DNA from: an uncultured Ruminococcus sp. | Lineage (GTDB): Bacteria > Bacillota > Clostridia > Oscillospirales > CAG-272 | Direction: 5' to 3' | Assembly: GCA_902785485.1 (NCBI GenBank) | Contig: CACZZA010000004.1 | Span: 1 to 62,322, forward strand | DNA: 62,322 bases | Translations under genes and position numbers: made by a program | Shown: positions 1-62,322 of the stretch, in pieces | How the letters are laid out: every line of letters starts with the position of its first letter | Position numbering within the stretch: the first letter of the stretch is position 1 | Notes under the pieces: model-generated | What the model was told of the DNA's origin: nothing | What the model saw: the letters and a program-made list of their open reading frames with translations, nothing else | Database searches by the model: none

Positions 1-885
1 TTTGAGCTTTTCGTAAGCGGTGACGGTCTTGTCCTTGTCCGCCATCAGGGTAACTTCGGGATAGCCTTCCGCGTTGTTCGTCGTCGCGCGGATGCCGAAG
101 CCGTAGAGGAACATTCTCGGGTTGTGGTTTTCGGAGAGGGTGCCGTACTGGTCGAACTCGGTCATGCGTCCGTCGCCGTCCATATCCTTCGATACGCTCT
201 TGACCATCTTCGCCCAGTTGTCGACCGTCCATTCGTTGTTTTCGATCAGCTCGTAGGGAGAGGTCAGACCGTAGTCCGAGACTATCTTTTTGTTGAAGAA
301 TACGACGAACCCTATCGTGTGGATATTGAGCGCGCAGTTCGTGAAGTAGAGCTTGTCGCCGATGAGCAGTTCTTTGTTCGCGTTCTGGTCCCAGTAAGGC
401 TTCGAGAGGTCGAACTGAGGCACGCTCTTGAGGTCGTAGAGCAGGTTTTCCTGAGCCATTGTCGCGAGACGCGCGCAGGACGCCAGAATAACGTCGAAGT
501 CGGTCGAGCCGGACATTATCTGAGCGCGGGCGGAAGACAGGATATCGGAGACCTTCAACTGAGTTATAATGATGTTATACTTTTCTTCGAGGATCTGATT
601 GCGTTTGGTGACCGCGACGGGGAGAGGCTCCTCCGCCTCGTCTTCTTCCGCCACGATATAATGCGTATTGTAAGAACTTCCCTCGTTCGTGATGAACGTG
701 AACTCGTACCCACCGTAGTCGACGGCTTCGATCTTGGGATCGTCCTCGCTGTTGAGGTTTATCGTCTCGGCGTCCGGGTTCGTTTTGGGTCCTTCTTCGG
801 TATCGCCTCCGCAGGCGACGAGGACCGGCAGGATCATCAATCCCGCGAGGAGTAAGGTCAAAAGCTTTTTCACAGTGTTTTTCAT
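1..885 (-). CDS. extracellular solute-binding lipoprotein (CUT1/LplA-like), paralog 1; C-terminal part cut by the window edge
   Basis: Reverse-strand ATG at 885 gives MKNTVKKLLTLLLAGLMILPVLVAC (signal peptide plus lipobox Cys). The DNA is collinear with paralog 2 at an offset of 1489 bp; positions 1-60 versus 1490-1549 differ at 1 base. Confidence 0.8.
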   Translation of the reverse strand, partial: MKNTVKKLLTLLLAGLMILPVLVACGGDTEEGPKTNPDAETINLNSEDDPKIEAVDYGGYEFTFITNEGSSYNTHYIVAEEDEAEEPLPVAVTKRNQILEEKYNIIITQLKVSDILSSARAQIMSGSTDFDVILASCARLATMAQENLLYDLKSVPQFDLSKPYWDQNANKELLIGDKLYFTNCALNIHTIGFVVFFNKKIVSDYGLTSPYELIENNEWTVDNWAKMVKSVSKDMDGDGRMTEFDQYGTLSENHNPRMFLYGFGIRATTNNAEGYPEVTLMADKDKTVTAYEKLK

Positions 886-907
886 TGATTGTACCCCATA
901 GACAGAA

Positions 908-2374
908 TCAGTTGTTTTTAAAGTTTGAATACGTTTTTTCTATGCTTGCTTTGATGGCTTTTTCGTGTCTCGCGAAGTTTCTCGAGATCTCGTTCGTCGC
1001 GATGTCCACATCAAGCACTTCGGAGCGGATGTTGCCGAAGTTATAATACATTCCGACGTCGTAAACGCAGTTGTCGCGCAGGATGTAGAGGTATTTCCTC
1101 GACTCCTCGTCGCGGGTGTAGCGGCGCGCGAGCAGGGTGTCGAACCAGGTCGGGACGGTGATGAGAGACGAATAGTAGTTCATATCCTCGATGATGCGTC
1201 CGGTACGGTCGAGGTCTTCGACGACTGACGGCAGAGCAAACAGATTGCATTGGAACTGATACATCGTCTTGAACTCTTTTTGGTTAGAGTCGTACTTCGG
1301 GAACGGGACGATACCGAATTCGCTCTCCATATCGGCGAATTGCTGGACGCTTCCCTCGCCGGTGTAGTGGAACATATAGAGATCCTGCATGAAGAGGGAG
1401 CGCAGATAATTCCATTTGTGGGTGAATCCGTGCGGATCGACCGTGCTGTTCGTCATATCGTAGCAGACCGTGTTGTCGGAGAAGACGGCTTTGAGCTTTT
1501 CGTAAGCGGTGACGGTCTTGTCCTTGTCCGCCATCAGGGTGACTTCGGGATATCCGTCTTCGTTGTTCGTCGTCGCGCGGATCCCGAACGCGTAGAGGAA
1601 CATCCTCGGGTTGTGCCGTTCGGAGAGGGTGCCGTACTGATCCCATTCGGTCATACGTCCGTCTCCGTCCATATCCTTCGATACGCTCTTGACCATCTTC
1701 GCCCAGTTGTCGACCGTCCATTCATTGTTTTCGATCAGCTCGTAGGGAGAGGTCAGTCCGTAGTCGGAGACTATCTTTTTGTTGAAGAATACGACGAACC
1801 CTATCGTGTGGATATTGAGCGCGCAGTTCGTGAAGTAGAGCTTGTCGCCGATAAGCAGTTCTTTGTTCGCGTTCTGGTCCCAGTAGGATTTCGACAGATC
1901 GAACTGAGGCACGCTCTTGAGGTCGTAGAGCAGGTTTTCCTGCGCCATCGTCGCAAGACGGTTGCAGGATGCCAGGATCACGTCGAAGTCTGTCGATCCG
2001 GACATGATCTGCGCGCGGGCGGTGGAAAGTATATCAGAGGTGTTGAGTTGCGTTATCACCACGTTGTATTTCTCTTCGATTATCTGATTGCGTTTCGTTA
2101 TCGCGACGGGGAGCGGATCGGATTCTTCTTCCTCTTCCGCCACGATATAGCCTGTGTTGTACGCGGTGCCTTCGTTCGTAAGAAATGTAAACTCGTACCC
2201 ATCGTAGTCGACAGCTTCGATCTTGGGATCTTCTTCGCTCTGTATCGCGACGGTTTCCGCGTCGGGATTGACGGACGGACCTTCGGCAGCGCCGTTCCCG
2301 CAGGCGACGAAAACGGGCAAGACGGTCAACCCCGCGAGGATAAAGGCGAAGAATTTTTTCGTACAGGTTTTCAT
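908..2374 (-). CDS. extracellular solute-binding lipoprotein (CUT1/LplA-like), paralog 2
   Basis: ORF 908..2416, trimmed to the ATG at 2374, which is preceded by GGAGGTG. N-terminus MKTCTKKFFAFILAGLTVLPVFVAC is a lipoprotein signal. About 490 aa, with the general look of sugar-ABC binding proteins. Confidence 0.8.
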   Translation of the reverse strand: MKTCTKKFFAFILAGLTVLPVFVACGNGAAEGPSVNPDAETVAIQSEEDPKIEAVDYDGYEFTFLTNEGTAYNTGYIVAEEEEESDPLPVAITKRNQIIEEKYNVVITQLNTSDILSTARAQIMSGSTDFDVILASCNRLATMAQENLLYDLKSVPQFDLSKSYWDQNANKELLIGDKLYFTNCALNIHTIGFVVFFNKKIVSDYGLTSPYELIENNEWTVDNWAKMVKSVSKDMDGDGRMTEWDQYGTLSERHNPRMFLYAFGIRATTNNEDGYPEVTLMADKDKTVTAYEKLKAVFSDNTVCYDMTNSTVDPHGFTHKWNYLRSLFMQDLYMFHYTGEGSVQQFADMESEFGIVPFPKYDSNQKEFKTMYQFQCNLFALPSVVEDLDRTGRIIEDMNYYSSLITVPTWFDTLLARRYTRDEESRKYLYILRDNCVYDVGMYYNFGNIRSEVLDVDIATNEISRNFARHEKAIKASIEKTYSNFKNN

Positions 2375-2530
2375 ATCGCACCTCCGAATCTTGATTATGT
2401 GTAAACATTTTATCATAAATGTGTTAACATTTCAAGTCTTTTTATATAAAATACACAAATATTTCCGGAAAGAAACCGGCGCCGGACCGCAAAATGCACC
2501 GAGCCGGTCTCTTTGCGTGCGGGACGGACC

Positions 2531-2566
2531 GAAAAAAGGGGTCTTCGGCGCGGAAGATCCCTTTTT
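2531..2566 (-). terminator. intrinsic terminator downstream of paralog 3
   Basis: GC hairpin GGGGTCTTC/GAAGATCCCC flanked by an A-run and a T-run, so it has a U-tract on the minus strand. Confidence 0.6.
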
Positions 2567-2584
2567 GTCACTGTTATGCGTCCG

Positions 2585-4075
2585 TCAGTTGAGTTCGAAC
2601 GATTTGTAGGTCTTGTCTATATCGGCTTTTGTGGCTTTCTCCACTCTTGCGTAACTGCGCGAAATATTCGCTGTCGTGATGTCGACGTCAAGCACGCTCG
2701 TGCGGATGCTGCCGAAGTCGTAGTAGAGACCTATGTCGTACACGCAGTTGTCGCGCAGCAGGCGCAGATACCTTTCGGATTCCTCGTCGCGGGTGTAGCG
2801 GCGGGTCAGCAGAGTCTCGAACCACGTGGGAAGCGTGATCGTCGAGGAGTAGAAGTTCATATCCTCGATGATGCGTCCGGTGCGGTCGACGTCCTCGATG
2901 ACGGACGGAAGGGCGAACAGGTTGGTGTTGACCTGGTACATCGTAAGATAGTCTTTCTGGTTGGAATCGTATTTCGGGAACGGGATGACTCCGAATTCGC
3001 TCTCCATATCGGCGAACTGCGTGATGCAGTCGTCGCTCGTGTAGTGGAACATATACAGATCCTGCGTGAACAGCGAACGCAGATAGTCCCACTTGTGGGG
3101 GAAGCCGTGCGGGTCGACTGAGCTTGAAGTCATATTGTAGCAGACGTTGGCGTCGGAGAACACCGCTTTGAGTTTTTCGTAGGCGGTGACGGTCTTGTCC
3201 TTGTCCGCCATCAGAGTAGGCTCGGGATAGCCGTTTTCGTTGTTGGTCGTCGCGCGGATGCCGAACGCGTAGAGGAACATCCTCGGGTTATGATTTTCGG
3301 TCAGCGTGCCGTACTGGTCGATCTCGGTCATACGTCCGTCGCCGTTCATATCTTTGGAAACGCTCTTTACCATTTCCGCCCATTTGTCGACGGTCCACTC
3401 GTTGTTCTCGATGAGGTCGTACGGGGATTCAAGTCCGTAATCGGAGACGATCTTTTTGTTGAAGAATACGACGAATCCGAGCGCGTGGATGTTGAGCGCG
3501 TTGTTGGTGAAATAAAGCTTGTCGCCGATCAGCAGTTCGGAATTCGCGTTCTGGTCCCAGTAGGGCTTCGAGAGGTCGAACCTCGGTACGTCGCGCAGAT
3601 TGTACAGCAGGTTTTCTTTCGCCATCGTCGCGAGAGTCGAGCACGACGCCAGTATGACGTCGAAGTCGGTCGAGCCGGACATTATCTGGGCGCGCGCGGT
3701 CGAAAGCAGGTCTGACGTGCGGAACTGCGTTATGGTTATGTTGTATTTTTCTTCGAGTATGTTGTTTCGTCTGATCAACGCCGACGGAAGAGGAGCTTCT
3801 TCCTGCCCTTCCTCCGCTACGATATAACGGGTGTTGTAGTCGTTGCCCTCTCTCGTGAGGAAGGTGAATTCGTATCCGCCGTAATCGACAGCTTCGATAT
3901 GCGGATCGTCGTCGAGCAGCGCCGGGTCGAACGCCGTTTCTCCGTCTTCGAGAGTTTCGATCCCGGTAACGCCCTTCGTCTCTTCCGCGTCCGATCCTCC
4001 GCACGAAGCGAGAGTGAACGCGAACGCTGTCAGAACGAAACAGAACGCCAGGATAAGTGACAGGGTCTTTCTCAT
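2585..4075 (-). CDS. extracellular solute-binding lipoprotein (CUT1/LplA-like), paralog 3 (more divergent)
   Basis: ORF 2585..4201, trimmed to the ATG at 4075 (RBS AAAGGAG). MRKTLSLILAFCFVLTAFAFTLASC is a lipoprotein signal. Collinear at the protein level with paralogs 1 and 2. Confidence 0.8.
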   Translation of the reverse strand: MRKTLSLILAFCFVLTAFAFTLASCGGSDAEETKGVTGIETLEDGETAFDPALLDDDPHIEAVDYGGYEFTFLTREGNDYNTRYIVAEEGQEEAPLPSALIRRNNILEEKYNITITQFRTSDLLSTARAQIMSGSTDFDVILASCSTLATMAKENLLYNLRDVPRFDLSKPYWDQNANSELLIGDKLYFTNNALNIHALGFVVFFNKKIVSDYGLESPYDLIENNEWTVDKWAEMVKSVSKDMNGDGRMTEIDQYGTLTENHNPRMFLYAFGIRATTNNENGYPEPTLMADKDKTVTAYEKLKAVFSDANVCYNMTSSSVDPHGFPHKWDYLRSLFTQDLYMFHYTSDDCITQFADMESEFGVIPFPKYDSNQKDYLTMYQVNTNLFALPSVIEDVDRTGRIIEDMNFYSSTITLPTWFETLLTRRYTRDEESERYLRLLRDNCVYDIGLYYDFGSIRTSVLDVDITTANISRSYARVEKATKADIDKTYKSFELN

Positions 4076-4348
4076 GTTTTCTCCTTTGATGCGCGTAACG
4101 CGCGGCAGGGTGTGGTCTTTCGGTATTGAAATATTACCATCAAGACGCGCTTTTGTCAAGGAAGAGAGTGCGGTTCCGTGATAAAAAAGCGGTTTTTGCA
4201 TTTTTTCAATGTAAATTGCTCCGTTTTTCTTGACAAAGCGGGAAAAATGATTTATTATTATTTTAATATGGGTTAGTATCGTTGATAATAATTCATCAAT
4301 AAGTTTTTCTCAGATATGACATCGCAATAATTGATAAGGAGGTGCTGT

Positions 4349-19318: not shown

Positions 19319-19626
19319 TTAGGCAGGCGGCGCGAATTTGAACACGGTTTTGGCGGGCATAGACCCGCCCATCCGTCAGAAAACATCTCGGAAATACACA
19401 AAGTATTCCCTTCACTGTTTTCTTCGGCTGAACAGCTCTCTGCTCCGTCAAAACTCTTCGACCCGAAAGCGATGGATTCAAAACTCTTCGACCCGAAAGC
19501 GATGGATTCTCGAGTCGTTTTTGGTGCGGAGGACGCCGCCTTACAAGCGTTTGGCAAGGACGACAAGCCGAAAACAGCCGAAAAGACGCGCTTTCAGGCG
19601 TGTTCAAATTCGCGCCGCCTGCCTAA
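19319..19626. repeat. R1-family structured repeat, divergent copy C, bounded by a perfect 28-bp inverted repeat
   Basis: TTAGGCAGGCGGCGCGAATTTGAACACG (19319-19346) is the exact reverse complement of 19599-19626. The interior carries the R1 hairpin AATAC-ACAAA-GTATT (19393-19407) inside helix AGAAAACA/TGTTTTCT. It also has a perfect 30-bp tandem duplication (19449-19478 and 19479-19508). Confidence 0.8.
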
Positions 19627-19643
19627 AAGGTCCCTCTTGCGTT

Positions 19644-19724
19644 CTCCGCGTCAAATTCTTATTTGCCTTCCTTTGTAAGTTTTTGAAAGAGCGCGAGAGG
19701 ACTTTTCTCAAAAAGTCCTCTCGC
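19644..19724 (+). repeat. R2-family repeat (AAATTCTTRTTT...TTTGTAAG...GCGAG-hairpin)
   Basis: Aligns with 47106-47189 (same orientation) and 46751-46837 (reverse complement). Hairpin GCGAGAGGAC/GTCCTCTCGC at 19693-19724. Confidence 0.7.
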
Positions 19725-35965: not shown

Positions 35966-36000
35966 AAAAATGGCTGTGTGGTGACACACAGCCATTTTTG
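35966..36000 (+). terminator. intrinsic terminator of the ABC locus
   Basis: AAAAATGGCTGTGTG-GTGA-CACACAGCCATTTTT perfect hairpin with a T-run. Confidence 0.85.
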
Positions 36001-36012
36001 GGTTTGGCGCTT

Positions 36013-36200
36013 GGTCTCGCGGCGATGACCACTGGAGAGAGGAAGAACAAAGTTCAGTTGCAATTTGCGCTTCGTCCGACTGCAAACGCTCGACGTACAC
36101 AAAGTACGCCTTCGGTTTGCACTCGAACGATCCTCATCCACGATACCGAAGCGCGTGGCGATCCTTCGCGGGTCGGGTTACCCGCCGTTGGTGAACGAAA
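36013..36200. repeat. R1-family structured intergenic repeat, copy A (candidate ncRNA or structured DNA element)
   Basis: Shares conserved blocks with 62036-62230: GGTCTCGCGGCGATGACC; GTTCAGTNGCAATTTGCGCTTCGTCCG; CTCGACGTACA-AAAGTACGCCTTCGG; CGAACGATCCTCATCCACGATACC; GGCGATCC. Two helices differ in sequence between the copies but stay complementary. Confidence 0.8.
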
Positions 36201-36314
36201 GTTTTCTTACAAAAACAAGGCGTATACTTTTATGCCGTGTTATTGCTGCAAAGGAGTGAAACAATTATTAGCGTGTATTTGAAACCTATGCGAGAGATAT
36301 TTAACTCACGATGA

Positions 36315-37070
36315 TTATTTCAGAACCGTATCCTTATACGGATTTTGTGCAAAGCCAAAATCAGTCATATTTAGCGGGATATTTTTATACTTGAAAAAGG
36401 CGTCAAAGAATATGGTCAGTTGCTGAGCAAAGTTACAAGCGTCTTTACAATGCTCATCCAAGAAAAAACTTATACTCTTTCCAGTGTCGGAATAATTAGA
36501 GTAACTGAAAGAAGATGTTGAATACAGGTTTTTTGTGTTAAAGGTTCCATATACCTTATGAGTGGCCGGAGCAAGGTAATTAGTATAAATGTAAACGTAT
36601 GAATAGTTATTAAGTATTACTCCGTCTTCTACTGAAAATCCGAAACTTTTTGTTGCTCCATCGACGGTGTGAATGACAAGAAAGGCGATCGTTCCGCTTG
36701 TCGAAGTGAAAGTTGGACAGATACTCCACTCTCCGTTTTTTACAGAATCCTTATAACTATACAAAAATTCATCGGGAGGCAGATGACAGCTTTCTATAAA
36801 ATCCTTAACATTATATGTTGCCGAATATACGCCGCTTTCATAATAATCTGCGTTTTTTCTGATTTCTTCAGCAAATGCGATCAGTTTTGCAGGAATGGGT
36901 TGAGTTTCGGTTTCACCGCAGGAGCATTTTCTTATTGAGCTTCCCCCTTCCGTAAGCGTGGGTTCTTTTTGAGTTTTCCATTCGGAAAAACTGTGTACGT
37001 GTTCCGATCCGCAAGCTGAAAAAGAAAGCAGCAAGCTTAATAGAATAATAATTGAGACAAAACGTTTCAT
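36315..37070 (-). CDS. hypothetical lipoprotein (AT-rich islet)
   Basis: MKRFVSIIILLSLLLSFSAC lipoprotein signal. Codon usage is much more AT-rich than in the flanking genes. Confidence 0.65.
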   Translation of the reverse strand: MKRFVSIIILLSLLLSFSACGSEHVHSFSEWKTQKEPTLTEGGSSIRKCSCGETETQPIPAKLIAFAEEIRKNADYYESGVYSATYNVKDFIESCHLPPDEFLYSYKDSVKNGEWSICPTFTSTSGTIAFLVIHTVDGATKSFGFSVEDGVILNNYSYVYIYTNYLAPATHKVYGTFNTKNLYSTSSFSYSNYSDTGKSISFFLDEHCKDACNFAQQLTIFFDAFFKYKNIPLNMTDFGFAQNPYKDTVLK

Positions 37071-37120
37071 TGGATATTTCTCCTTTTTGTTTTTGTGCTT
37101 CTTGAAAGAACCAATAGTTG

Positions 37121-37447
37121 TTATTGAGTAGTAACAAAACTGCTTGTCAAAGAAACGGCGGCTGATACAAGCGGAACAACGATTTGATTTATTTTGTTGT
37201 AAAAGTCGCCTCTACTCCATTCTTCGAACTTGACAACATCTATTATGATGTATTCGTCTGTCGGCTTATCTTTTTTAACGTCATCGCCGACGATACCGCA
37301 GCTCATAAGAGCTGAAATAAGACAAATGTATCTGTTTTTGTCGATCTTATAGTTCGTCCAATCGGTTTTACATCTGTTATTGATGTTTTTAATTATAGCA
37401 CGAATATTGTTGGTATCGGTGTTCTTTCTCGGAATACAAGGTTTCAT
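37121..37447 (-). CDS. hypothetical small protein with C-terminal TM helix (AT-rich islet)
   Basis: ORF 37121..37621, trimmed to the ATG at 37447, which follows GGGAGGG. No family recognised. Confidence 0.45.
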   Translation of the reverse strand: MKPCIPRKNTDTNNIRAIIKNINNRCKTDWTNYKIDKNRYICLISALMSCGIVGDDVKKDKPTDEYIIIDVVKFEEWSRGDFYNKINQIVVPLVSAAVSLTSSFVTTQ

Positions 37448-37783
37448 TAACATCCCTCCCTTCCCGAAAAATAAAAAAGTGCGCCAACCGAAGTCAACGC
37501 ACCGAAAAACGCAAACCCCGATTGTCGCCAAACAAATTTCAAGCAATAGACGTGGGATGTCCACACTAAAACCAGCGGAATTTGCGTTTTTACCGTATTC
37601 AACTGATTTCAGCGTGCGCAAAAAAGGGCAAAAATATCCCTTAAAGACAAAAATACCCCACTCTACGCTCTATGAAATTTGTTTGGCATAGTTAGAATAA
37701 CATATTTTATTGTTTTTGTCAACTGAACATAGAATAAAGATTTTTTTTATTGTTTTTTTAATCGTAAAACGGAAGAAAAAATA

Positions 37784-37813
37784 TTGACACGGGGGTTATT
37801 GTTGTGTTATAAT
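37784..37813 (+). promoter_or_regulatory. promoter of the pyr operon
   Basis: TTGACA, 18 nt spacer, TATAAT, with a TG at the extended -10 position. Confidence 0.65.
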
Positions 37814-37820
37814 CATAAAA

Positions 37821-37880
37821 ATAGATCGAGAGAGCTTTTGCCGACATTCTGACCTTGTTTGAAACAAGGTCGGTTTTTTG
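37821..37880 (+). promoter_or_regulatory. PyrR-type transcription attenuator (binding-loop-like motif plus terminator)
   Basis: GAUCGAGAGAGCUU resembles the PyrR binding-loop consensus ARUCCAGAGAGGCU. It is followed by the GACCTTGTTT-G-AAACAAGGTC hairpin (37851-37871) and a T6 run, 38 nt before the pyrC ATG. Confidence 0.6.
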
Positions 37881-37917
37881 AGAGGGCAAAGGTTTTATCC
37901 TGCGGAAAGGTAAACAG

Positions 37918-46284: not shown

Positions 46285-46716
46285 ATGATAATAGGACAGA
46301 TAATCAACGGCATCGTGCTTGACCACATCACCGCCGGACGCGGAGTCGACATATACGAAACGCTCCGCCTCGGAGAGCTTGACTGCACCGTCGCGATGAT
46401 ATTCAACGCCGACTCGGTCAAGATGGGCAAAAAGGACATCATCAAGATCGGAACTCCGATAGATATAGACCTCGACGTGCTCGGTATCATCGATCCCGGC
46501 ATCACCGTAAACTATATCCGCAACGGAGAGGTCGCGAAACGCGAACGTATCTCGCTCCCGGCGACGATACGCGGCATCCTCAAATGCAAAAATCCGCGCT
46601 GCATCACGACGACCGAACAGGGACTTACGCAGGAGTTCCGCCTCTGCGACGAGGAAAACAAGGTCTACCGCTGCGTTTACTGCGAGACGAAAGCGGATAC
46701 GTCAAGTCTGAAATAA
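46285..46716 (+). CDS. pyrI: aspartate carbamoyltransferase regulatory subunit
   Basis: NGIVLDHI...IIKI...CKNPRCIT...YRCVYCE with a zinc-binding Cys4. The ATG lies 2 nt after the pyrB stop. Confidence 0.9.
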   Translation: MIIGQIINGIVLDHITAGRGVDIYETLRLGELDCTVAMIFNADSVKMGKKDIIKIGTPIDIDLDVLGIIDPGITVNYIRNGEVAKRERISLPATIRGILKCKNPRCITTTEQGLTQEFRLCDEENKVYRCVYCETKADTSSLK

Positions 46717-46753
46717 GAAACGCTAAGAAACGCTAAGAAACGCTAAGAAACGC
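46714..46753 (+). repeat. 4 x 10-bp perfect tandem repeat TAAGAAACGC starting at the pyrI stop codon
   Basis: Read directly: 46714-23, 46724-33, 46734-43 and 46744-53 are identical. Confidence 0.95.
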
Positions 46754-46837
46754 GAGGGGGACCTTTTAAGGAAAGGTCCCCCTCGCGCTCCCCTCTAAAC
46801 CTTACAAAGGGAAGGGAGATAAACAAGAATTTAGCGG
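46751..46837 (-). repeat. R2-family repeat, left inverted arm of the pyrI-downstream element
   Basis: Its reverse complement aligns with 47106-47189 and 19644-19724. Hairpin GCGAGGGGGACC/GGTCCCCCTCGC. Confidence 0.75.
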
Positions 46838-47105
46838 CGTATTTGAAAGACGAATGATAGTCGAAAACTTCACCTTAAATCGGTGAGTGAGCGGTTTTGT
46901 CAATAGCTCACCCCTATGGGGGAGCTGTCGACGAAGTCGACTGAGAGGGCACGCCTGCGGTTGGTTACTATTCGTAATACCCTCTCCGTCACGGCGGGAC
47001 GGACACCGCCGCGCCACCTCTCCCATGGTGAGAGGTACCCGTTAGTGTTCGCTCGCCGCCTCGAGGTGAAGTATGTGCCTATCGTTTGTAACGGCAATAG
47101 TTGCT
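46838..47105. other. 268-bp GC-rich, hairpin-dense core enclosed by the R2 inverted arms (unclassified structured element)
   Basis: Closing helix ACTTCACC/GGTGAAGT plus GATAG/CTATC. Internal perfect hairpins GTGAGC..GCTCAC, CCCC-TAT-GGGG, GTCGAC-GAA-GTCGAC, GAGAGGG..CCCTCTC, GGCGG..CCGCC and CCTCTC..GAGAGG. No credible ORF. Confidence 0.6.
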
Positions 47106-47189
47106 CCGCTAAATTCTTGTTTATATTTCTGTCCCTCTGAAAGGTTTAGAAAAGGGTGCGGGAAAAACCTTTCCTTAAAAGGTTTTTCC
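47106..47189 (+). repeat. R2-family repeat, right arm
   Basis: CCGCTAAATTCTTGTTTAT...GGTTTAGA...GCGGGAAAAACC/GGTTTTTCCTGC hairpin. A partial third copy (TATTCTTGTTTATATTTCT) lies at 47209-47232. Confidence 0.75.
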
Positions 47190-47236
47190 TGCGCTCCCGT
47201 TCTCTCCTATATTCTTGTTTATATTTCTATCCCGAT

Positions 47237-61944: not shown

Positions 61945-61980
61945 CGAAAAAAGAAAAAACGCAAGAAGATAACTAACCAA

Positions 61981-62010
61981 GGGACTGAACAAAAACAGTC
62001 CCTTATTTTT
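61981..62010 (+). terminator. intrinsic terminator of the rnf operon
   Basis: GGGACTG-N8-CAGTCCC stem followed by TTATTTTT. Confidence 0.75.
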
Positions 62011-62035
62011 ATTAACAGGAAAATTTATCGCACTC

Positions 62036-62260
62036 GGTCTCGCGGCGATGACCGCTGACTAACTATAAAGCCTTGTTCAGTGGCAATTTGCGCTTCGTCC
62101 GTTCTCTCCCACTCGACGTACAGAAAGTACGCCTTCGGGGAGAGAACGAACGATCCTCATCCACGATACCTTCGCGCAGGGCGATCCATCGAAGGAAAAG
62201 TAACTTTCCGAAGGAAAGGAAACGCACAAACCCCACCTACGAAGCCGAGCCATTTGGCAG
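62036..62260. repeat. R1-family structured intergenic repeat, copy B
   Basis: Contains the same conserved blocks as copy A. Helix GTTCTCTCCC (62101-10) pairs with GGGAGAGAAC (62138-47). Inner hairpin CGTAC-AGAAA-GTACG (62117-31). Helix CCTTCG (62169-74) pairs with CGAAGG (62190-95). Confidence 0.8.
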
Positions 62261-62322
62261 TTATGTAAACGATTATTGCTGAATGGGCGATAGTGTTCCA
62301 AATGGCGATGCGAACGATAATT

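Follow-up and report, generated by a model that had tools for sequence, protein, structure and literature searches.

Uncatalogued rod-shaped hairpin elements with a nearly invariant tip in an uncultured Ruminococcus sp. and other gut and rumen Clostridia

The DNA analysed here (the window) comprises 62,322 nucleotides of an uncultured Ruminococcus sp. (the whole contig CACZZA010000004.1 of GenBank assembly GCA_902785485.1) and carries three elements, A, B and C, which are members of a large, uncatalogued superfamily of non-coding rod-shaped hairpin elements from gut and rumen Clostridia. Each is a stack of helices capped by an apical module, in which the helices are free to change as long as they pair, while the loops, the junctions and the tip stay constant. 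The fold is selected on the minus strand of the window. With a confidence that we put at even, the elements are read as non-autonomous structured repeats of the ERIC/Correia/REPIN kind, whose invariant tip and junctions would be recognised by a factor encoded elsewhere.

Apical module, covariation and the folding strand

When A was compared with plasmids by blastn, only its enclosed hairpin was matched, in the 306-nt rpsN-rpsH gap of Vescimonas fastidiosa, a cultured and completely sequenced organism with one unannotated element (pMM35_01 487340-487645; L186 2973-3278). A search pattern for the tip in which the inner stem was left free (CTCG-N3-4-TACASAAAGTA-N2-3-CCTTCG) found 99 stretches in a public gut and rumen metagenome collection, and in these the hairpin was always the tip of a long imperfect hairpin whose stems varied per copy and whose internal junctions were conserved. 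The consensus tip on the foldable strand, 5'-CGAAGG-NNUAC-UUUGU-GUANN-UCGAG-3' (26 nt), was nearly invariant and was kept across organisms of ~32% to 60% GC and across several outer frames.

The covariance model R1 was built from 37 metagenome elements, none of them from the window. Applied to the window with no filters, it recovered exactly three sites, all on the minus strand: C with 37.4 bits, A with 36.1 bits (36055-36153, E 1e-6) and B with 33.1 bits (62078-62176), the next match of 16.7 bits being the other half of C. These are the three copies that had been listed by the first-pass annotation, made from the letters of the window alone, which had proposed a covariance model of the three copies and a wider search. 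In the metagenome loci R1 gave 114 matches in 100 loci, 87 of the sequences being distinct. The apical module, the nested covarying helices and the G.U-rich strand that mark the superfamily were found in A, B and C, with most of the score coming from the tip; A/B and C possess the apical module and the nested-helix setting of the main family, not its outer frame.

Pairing was retained in 93.7% of the cells of the 114 matches, compared to 68.6% after shuffling and 41–51% after sliding by 1–3 columns, and the covariation score was 0.615 versus 0.18 (shuffled) and 0.07–0.12 (slid). Among the 87 distinct relatives 26 of the 30 pairs were altered on both sides, and a plain MAFFT alignment evaluated with RNAalifold had compensatory changes in 23 of 30 pairs. 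The two inner tip pairs, which the first-pass annotation had noticed as covarying between the window copies, alternate across the family as AU:59/CG:24 and AU:67/GC:20. Its central claim, that the repeats form a family in which a fold and not a protein is selected, is thereby borne out. The tip loop occurred as UUUGU, UUUUU and UUCCU. The two sides of the tip internal loop co-vary in off-pattern copies (GAAG/CGAG to GCAG/CAAG, alignment A5), which hints at a defined non-canonical RNA motif; a K-turn reading was set aside, as by eye it does not agree with the consensus.

In contrast to the first-pass annotation, which described the plus strand, the selected fold lies on its reverse complement. 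The minus strand was the more stable one in 75 of 79 relatives (mean -91 vs -73 kcal/mol; -113 vs -88 kcal/mol in the metagenome locus L189), and the fold z-scores were -4.0 (minus) vs -1.8 (plus) for A and -4.75 vs -4.0 for B. Paired cells contained 253 G.U against 29 A.C combinations, and unbiased minimum-energy folds had 570 G.U pairs on the minus and 408 on the plus strand. A direct example is CGTCCG/CGAACG of A and B, where a C.A mismatch on the plus strand becomes a U.G pair on the minus strand. Since G.U far exceeds A.C and the minus strand folds better, the fold is selected on this strand, either as RNA or as single-stranded DNA. With DNA folding parameters the minus strand was again more stable. 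RNA is the more likely form, because ~10% of the pairs are wobbles and the tip internal loop co-varies at non-canonical positions.

No known RNA class was recognised, as the first-pass annotation had also stated: at gathering score Rfam 15 matched only two tRNAs in the window, A and L189 gave only noise at E<=10, 17 metagenome loci gave only rRNA and tRNA, and no match at E<=0.01 was obtained for the loci of rpmH and rpsN. A full-text literature search with the tip sequence and context words found no description of the element. The claim that all reading frames are full of stops had to be corrected, since in both A and B several frames run through the conserved core without a stop, and one minus-strand frame terminates at the same stop in the two copies. 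The non-coding character held: a concatenated six-frame query, which included a search for spurious open reading frames (ORFs) of further copies, found no relative in 5.8 billion proteins, and A and B vary in complementary 9-nt blocks. For these two reasons the element is considered non-coding, and a protein-coding reading was rejected.

Structure of elements A, B and C

Homology between A and B extended over 36008-36257 and 62031-62290 in a pairwise alignment; the right boundaries of the first-pass annotation fell short by ~60 nt, the elements running on to TTATTGCTG. All other coordinates and strings checked were exact: TGCAAAC (36081-87) with GTTTGCA (36115-21) and CCGAAG (36146-51) with CTTCG (36164-68) in A, and, as outer helices, GTTCTCTCCC (62101-10) with GGGAGAGAAC (62138-47) in B and AGAAAACA (19378-85) with TGTTTTCT (19416-23) in C. 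The features of A and B are:

36008-36257, minus: element A, full extent of A/B homology (alignment, nhmmer, R1, fold z-score)
36013-36030, minus: A/B-identical block GGTCTCGCGGCGATGACC, predicted 3' arm of the long-range helix closing the rod
36031-36078, minus: asymmetric internal region on the 3' side of the rod (A/B alignment)
36079-36087, minus: first arm of the variable 9-bp helix of A (ACTGCAAAC), pairs with 36115-36123
36089-36114, minus: apical module of A, CGAAGG-CGUAC-UUUGU-GUACG-UCGAG
36115-36123, minus: second arm of this helix (GTTTGCACT), pairs with 36079-36087
36124-36147, minus: A/B-identical block CGAACGATCCTCATCCACGATACC, exactly two matches
36146-36236, minus: 5' domain with three small hairpins, stems different between A and B, loops kept
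36240-36248, minus: right-edge TTATTGCTG, conserved, reading CAGCAAUAA on the minus strand, also at 62273
35966-35999, both strands: bidirectional intrinsic terminator of the ABC-transporter operon (A5-stem-loop-T5; from the sequence)
62031-62290, minus: element B, downstream of rnfB (alignment, nhmmer, R1, fold z-score)
62102-62146, minus: helix around the tip of B, 9 bp and variable (TTCTCTCCC / GGGAGAGAA), 9/9 paired
62112-62137, minus: apical module of B, loop UUUCU on the minus strand
61979-62004, both strands: hairpin after rnfB, terminator-like on both strands

Identical stretches of 18–27 bases alternate in A and B with helices that are fully different yet complementary. The common blocks of 18, 19 and 24 nt each occurred exactly twice in the window (0–0.13 expected), and an nhmmer profile of A and B recovered both together with the same loci in other assemblies of the population (E ~1e-63). 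The claim of helices replaced as a whole with pairing preserved stood firm in the 9-bp helix adjoining the tip, which differs between A and B at 7 of 9 positions, on both sides, while pairing at 8/9 positions in A and at 9/9 in B; in another two small hairpins the stems were likewise replaced but complementary, and RNAalifold applied to A and B alone counted 11–15 pairs altered on both sides. On the minus strand the apical module of A consists of a UUUGU loop on a 7-bp stem, whose second pair is G.U, and of an internal loop CGAA/GAG. The hairpins of the 5' domain are CGAAG/CUUCG around GAUCGCC, CGGG-UAA-CCCG and GGCAUA/UACGCC. The asymmetric internal region begins with a 21-nt segment (36031-36051) that is wholly different in A and B and continues with a conserved 27-nt block (GTTCAGTKGCAATTTGCGCTTCGTCCG).

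The rod would be closed by a long-range helix of 19 positions formed by the outermost identical blocks, with 36124-36147 as the 5' arm pairing with 36013-36030; on the minus strand CGUUCG of the former block pairs with CGGACG via U.G, and several of the G.U pairs become A.C on the plus strand. This helix is invariant in both copies and so stands as a prediction. The elements start with GCRCTYGG, and the right-edge TTATTGCTG is kept at 36240-48 in A and 62273-81 in B; TTATTGCTG/CAGCAAUAA could be either a -10-like box or the plus-strand partner of the block 36020-28, in a pairing with three G.U.

Because an exact 20-mer of the best A/B block had no match among the GTDB species genomes or in the metagenome contigs, the A/B frame seems private to this rumen population. 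Loci identical to those of the window were present in ENA and Logan assemblies of cattle-rumen metagenomes (L001-L010), and the nearest named genomes were uncultured Eubacteriales/Clostridia metagenome-assembled genomes (MAGs) with a RnfC identity of <=74%. Three short-read contigs (L003, L004 and L010) end inside A or B, and all assemblies carrying rnfB end 125–485 nt after this gene, just past B (window 62290-62322; L005 11140-11340), which hints at further copies or a branching point there without proving it.

Element C was found to be of a different build:

19319-19626, minus: element C, 308 bp, separate, closed by a perfect 28-bp inverted repeat
19342-19459, minus: rod unit of C, covered over its full length by R1 (37.4 bits, E 4.7e-7)

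Its terminal inverted repeat (19319-19346 / 19599-19626) has the ends TTA...TAA, and between the arms lie a single rod unit bearing the apical module and a tandem duplication of 31 bp (~19449-19510). C folds at -152 kcal/mol on the minus strand (z -8.5). The tip (19387-19413) is that of the metagenome loci L192, L200 and L212 with the exception of the last base. Neither a sequence pattern nor the nhmmer profile detected C as a homologue of A/B. What C has in common with them is the apical module with its stacked helix in the nested-helix setting, not the whole element. The earlier view of C as a divergent copy has to be corrected: C is a separate element, bounded by terminal inverted repeats, with the apical module in it. 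A motif of other repeated material, AAGGTCCCNCTYGCG, recurs directly after C (19627-19647).

Genomic context, copy number and distribution

A lies next to ABC-transporter genes and two orphan ORFs without Pfam match, and B next to rnf genes; no transposase was seen among the called genes of the window. The first-pass annotation had placed the copies always just behind an operon terminator. In the window A and B do lie 5–26 nt, and C ~25 nt, past a plus-strand terminator-like hairpin in one and the same orientation, while in the family this is only a tendency: a reverse-oriented terminator was present on the 3' side of the foldable strand in 20 of 67 relatives and a forward one in 4 of 67. Since the minus strand is the selected one, the "operon terminator" is located at the 3' end of this strand and is directed towards it. 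The terminator at 35966-35999, where both a forward and a reverse terminator were scored, is 8 nt away from this end of A, and on the whole A, B and C add a very stable predicted hairpin on the antisense strand just behind three terminators. Directly upstream of A on the foldable strand there is a low-GC island (36250-37900, ~33–40% vs 50–60% around), whose minus-strand ORFs 36315-37070 and 37121-37621 matched no Pfam entry and were without a homologue among 5.8 billion proteins, the search with the orphan gene beside A giving back this gene alone.

In other Clostridia, as translations of the loci showed, the elements occupy spacers of translation operons: between rpmH and rnpA in the order rpmH, terminator, element, rnpA start, in the rpsN-rpsH spacer of three unrelated lineages, and in the rpsJ-rplC and rplE-rpsN spacers. 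With gene orientation taken from motif recognition of L34 and S14 and from terminator geometry, the foldable strand was antisense to the operon without exception near rpmH (10 of 10 elements) and near rpsN (5 of 5); the only context seen with the foldable strand in sense was a member between tRNA genes and the 23S rRNA gene (L208 588-705). Ten distinct orthologous rpmH-rnpA copies keep the pairing, with G.U 27 vs A.C 5. In many relatives the element is squeezed in between two terminators or between a stop codon and the gene that follows, which leaves no room for a promoter. In the Vescimonas fastidiosa gap there are ~190 nt of further unexplained sequence with a promoter-like TTCTCA-18-TATTAT on the antisense strand, found by eye.

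Several contigs of <=15 kb carry two or three elements, and multi-copy or tandem loci were L231, L273, L255, L249, L207, L209, L244 and L281. The tandem arrays have a 106-nt period, and the number of units at one locus differs between samples (one in L223/L252, three in L209); in L263 the last bases of rpsN recur in the second unit. The arrays of 106-nt rods are:

L209, 10768-11094
L244, 7700-8009
L200, 2203-2623
L263, 159-400

Tandem units are nearly identical, while dispersed copies on one contig are ~50% identical in the stems, with loops and junctions kept, which also applies to A and B. In the spc ribosomal-protein operon of L281 (3920-5400), from an AT-rich organism, three consecutive spacers are expanded to 223, 387 and 239 nt, and two of them hold TA-flanked family units, ~88% alike, with 14-nt terminal inverted repeats. 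TA flanks C and both of these units; being self-complementary, it is inseparable from an extension of the inverted repeats. Two of the spacers also carry a second, unrelated repeat (aaaattttattcaaacatcctcatgtacc...).

The distribution of the family across lineages is patchy. No element was found by nhmmer or R1 around the rnf operon of 80 related Clostridia (80 rnfC loci, 1.2 Mb), and in a relative with 71% RnfC identity the site downstream of rnfB is empty, the terminator being followed at once by a convergent gene. The tip pattern had no match in the IMG/VR viral contigs, viral scans with A/B block patterns gave only chance matches, and a blastn comparison of family members with plasmids and phages yielded nothing beyond the tip match in the Vescimonas chromid.

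Nature of the elements and competing explanations

The kind closest to the elements is that of ERIC, Correia, BOX and REPIN, because they are non-coding, multi-copy, patchy in distribution, tandem, spacer-dwelling and sometimes bounded by terminal inverted repeats. The likeness to ERIC/IRU, Correia (CREE/NEMIS), BOX and bcr1 is one of description: these are non-coding imperfect palindromes of 100–300 bp in many copies, intergenic, intra-operon or terminator-adjacent, forming long hairpins when single-stranded and occurring in tandem or composite forms, and some of these MITE-like repeats have terminal inverted repeats flanked by TA, a feature seen here in C and in the L281 units. In contrast to ERIC, Correia and BOX, the 26-nt tip is nearly invariant over diverse Clostridia and unrelated outer frames, the stems within one genome are unrelated, selection for pairing acts on one strand and the operon copies are consistently antisense; no sequence similarity to them turned up, the reference sequences not having been compared, and no cognate transposase is known here. 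With REP/REPIN the elements have in common that they are extragenic hairpin repeats near terminators or convergent genes, with long persistence, kept pairing and a presumed single-stranded recognition form. Units of 20–40 nt, a 5' GTAG, high similarity within a genome and a link to REP-associated tyrosine transposases (RAYTs) were not seen, REPs are mostly proteobacterial, and the present elements are rods of 110–300 nt with conserved internal junctions and tip. As structured repeats of this kind, the elements would move, now or in the past, through a single-stranded intermediate; their invariant tip and junctions would form the recognition surface for a trans-acting protein encoded elsewhere, and copies would persist only where they are harmless, oriented such that the neighbouring mRNA receives the weaker hairpin.

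Several named classes were rejected. An integron attC site is contradicted by the absence of R''/R' cores from B and from the family consensus, the GCAAAC/GTTTGC of A being a copy-specific helix. Group IIC introns insert after terminators, but the element gave no Rfam intron match and starts with GCRCTYGG, not GUGYG. A retron non-coding RNA or an IS200/IS605 omega or right-end RNA was dismissed as no reverse transcriptase or TnpA/TnpB is present among the neighbours of A and B. REP/REPIN proper disagrees with the unit length of 110–300 nt and with conserved blocks that begin otherwise than with GTAG. For miniature inverted-repeat transposable elements (MITEs) the picture is mixed. Terminal inverted repeats were perfect over 28 bp in C and 14 nt long in L281, A and B having only a 9-nt wobble-complementary pair of edge motifs; near-identical dispersed copies with a related autonomous insertion sequence were not found, only the tandem units and the two L281 units being alike.

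The reading as mobile repeats has to be weighed against a number of observations. There are no convincing terminal inverted repeats or target duplications in A and B, and the surroundings of the copies yielded no transposase, RAYT or reverse transcriptase, so that mobility and its mechanism are what we infer. Stems that are only ~50% identical between copies with kept loops are unlike a recent MITE burst and more like old paralogous functional RNAs, and the upkeep of pairing in the rpmH-rnpA copies suggests that selection acts at the site itself and not just while copies spread. As to family membership, a match to the tip alone already gives 32.7 bits on R1, barely less than the 33–36 bits of A and B; the R1 alignment was fitted to the model and leans towards the modelled structure; and the features of A and B beyond the tip and one helix rest on two sequences with a frame found only in this rumen population.

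The combination of unrelated stems with identical loops, the kept pairing of the ten rpmH-rnpA copies and a tip conserved over the GC range and over different frames pulls towards a functional structured RNA, an explanation that we regard as possible but tentative. The rod would then display its invariant three-dimensional apical module, having tandem non-canonical pairs and the UUUGU loop, as a portable protein site, and would be kept in place antisense to ribosomal-protein, rnpA and other operons to act on their expression or processing, any spread being a side effect or followed by domestication. As a motif that is supported by covariation, has no assigned function and comes mainly from gut and rumen metagenomes, the family resembles the orphan motifs of the Weinberg and Breaker collections, but it is absent from the 4227 families of Rfam 15 at any threshold tried. 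Palindromic candidates are mentioned by Fremin and Bhatt (2021; PMC8040213), whose main text has no match to the rnpA or rpmH contexts.

A host-serving cis-acting RNA element is rather unlikely. Antisense transcripts would be stopped or processed at it, for example by RNase III or a tip-bound factor, or the sense hairpin, weaker yet still strong, would protect the 3' end of the upstream mRNA in the manner of REP/ERIC. This would agree with the fixed geometry, in which a gene transcribed towards the element has its stop codon or terminator right next to the 3' end of the foldable strand, with the enrichment in the rpmH-rnpA, rpsN-rpsH, rpsJ-rplC and spc spacers, with the G.U-biased maintenance of pairing in the ten orthologous rpmH-rnpA copies and with a sense strand that is itself strongly structured (L189 plus strand -88.5 kcal/mol, z -9). 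On the other hand, close relatives live without the element, the tandem amplification and the modularity over multiple frames look selfish, and a simple roadblock hairpin needs no invariant tip.

Trans-acting small RNAs (sRNAs) transcribed from the minus strand, with their own promoter, a 5' hairpin domain, a rod with a protein-binding tip, a copy-specific seed and a shared bidirectional terminator, are less probable again. They could draw on the minus-direction terminator 8–26 nt past the rod at A and B, on the conserved CAGCAATAA box ~230 nt upstream, on the 21-nt copy-specific unpaired segment, which is CU-rich and anti-Shine-Dalgarno-like in A, and on the resemblance of conserved loops with divergent stems to paralogous RNA genes. 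But the box is part of a minus-strand promoter-like site (TTGGAA-18-AATAAT) only at B, none being present at A, and may alternatively pair with the first block on the plus strand; the forward 3' terminator is as rare in the relatives as given above, and many of these have no space for a promoter.

A site acting as single-stranded DNA, that is a one-strand hairpin used by a recombinase, an HUH nuclease or a priming system with attC, IS200/IS605 ends and plasmid single-strand origins (sso) as analogues, appears improbable. The same strand is favoured by DNA parameters, a conserved loop on a variable stem follows the logic of attC and sso, and the orientation to the neighbouring, probably replication-co-oriented, genes is fixed; with attC the elements also have structure over sequence, one active strand, variable stems and a position at the 3' end of genes in common. 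Against this stand the share of G.T, ~10% of the pairs, and the apparently isosteric co-variation of the tip loop, both more typical of RNA, the zero matches in viral contigs and none in plasmids apart from one chromid, and the absence of an integrase, Y1 transposase or Rep gene from the surroundings of the copies seen. Unlike attC, the elements have no R''/L''-L'/R' cores and form no cassette arrays, and their tip loop is conserved where the centre of attC is variable. Integrons are hardly known from Firmicutes.

A small protein gene or a chance resemblance is close to negligible: the frames open through the core of A and B, one with a shared stop, are outweighed by the absence of protein relatives and by differences that take the form of complementary 9-nt blocks, and chance by block matches far beyond expectation together with covariation in 87 relatives.

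If the favoured reading as structured repeats is true, an element common in gut and rumen Clostridia and reaching into the rpmH-rnpA and ribosomal-protein spacers has been missed by both RNA-family and repeat catalogues. It would offer a testable case of a portable, near-invariant tip on freely varying helices, a case of strand-specific fold selection antisense to essential operons, and a case of assembly breaks and annotation gaps caused by repeats in MAGs. The factor reading the tip would tell a new mobile-element system from an RNA-protein regulatory module, or reveal both.

Two other repeated regions were observed in the window. At 46716-47230 a 10-nt unit, AAGAAACGCT, occurs four times in tandem together with a palindrome, GCGAGGGGGACC...GGTCCCCCTCGC, and a 52-nt inverted repeat (46761-46812 / 47132-47183). 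Positions 1-4200, where the contig starts, hold three tandem paralogous genes with 300-nt repeats at 72–93% identity, and the contig begins inside one of them.

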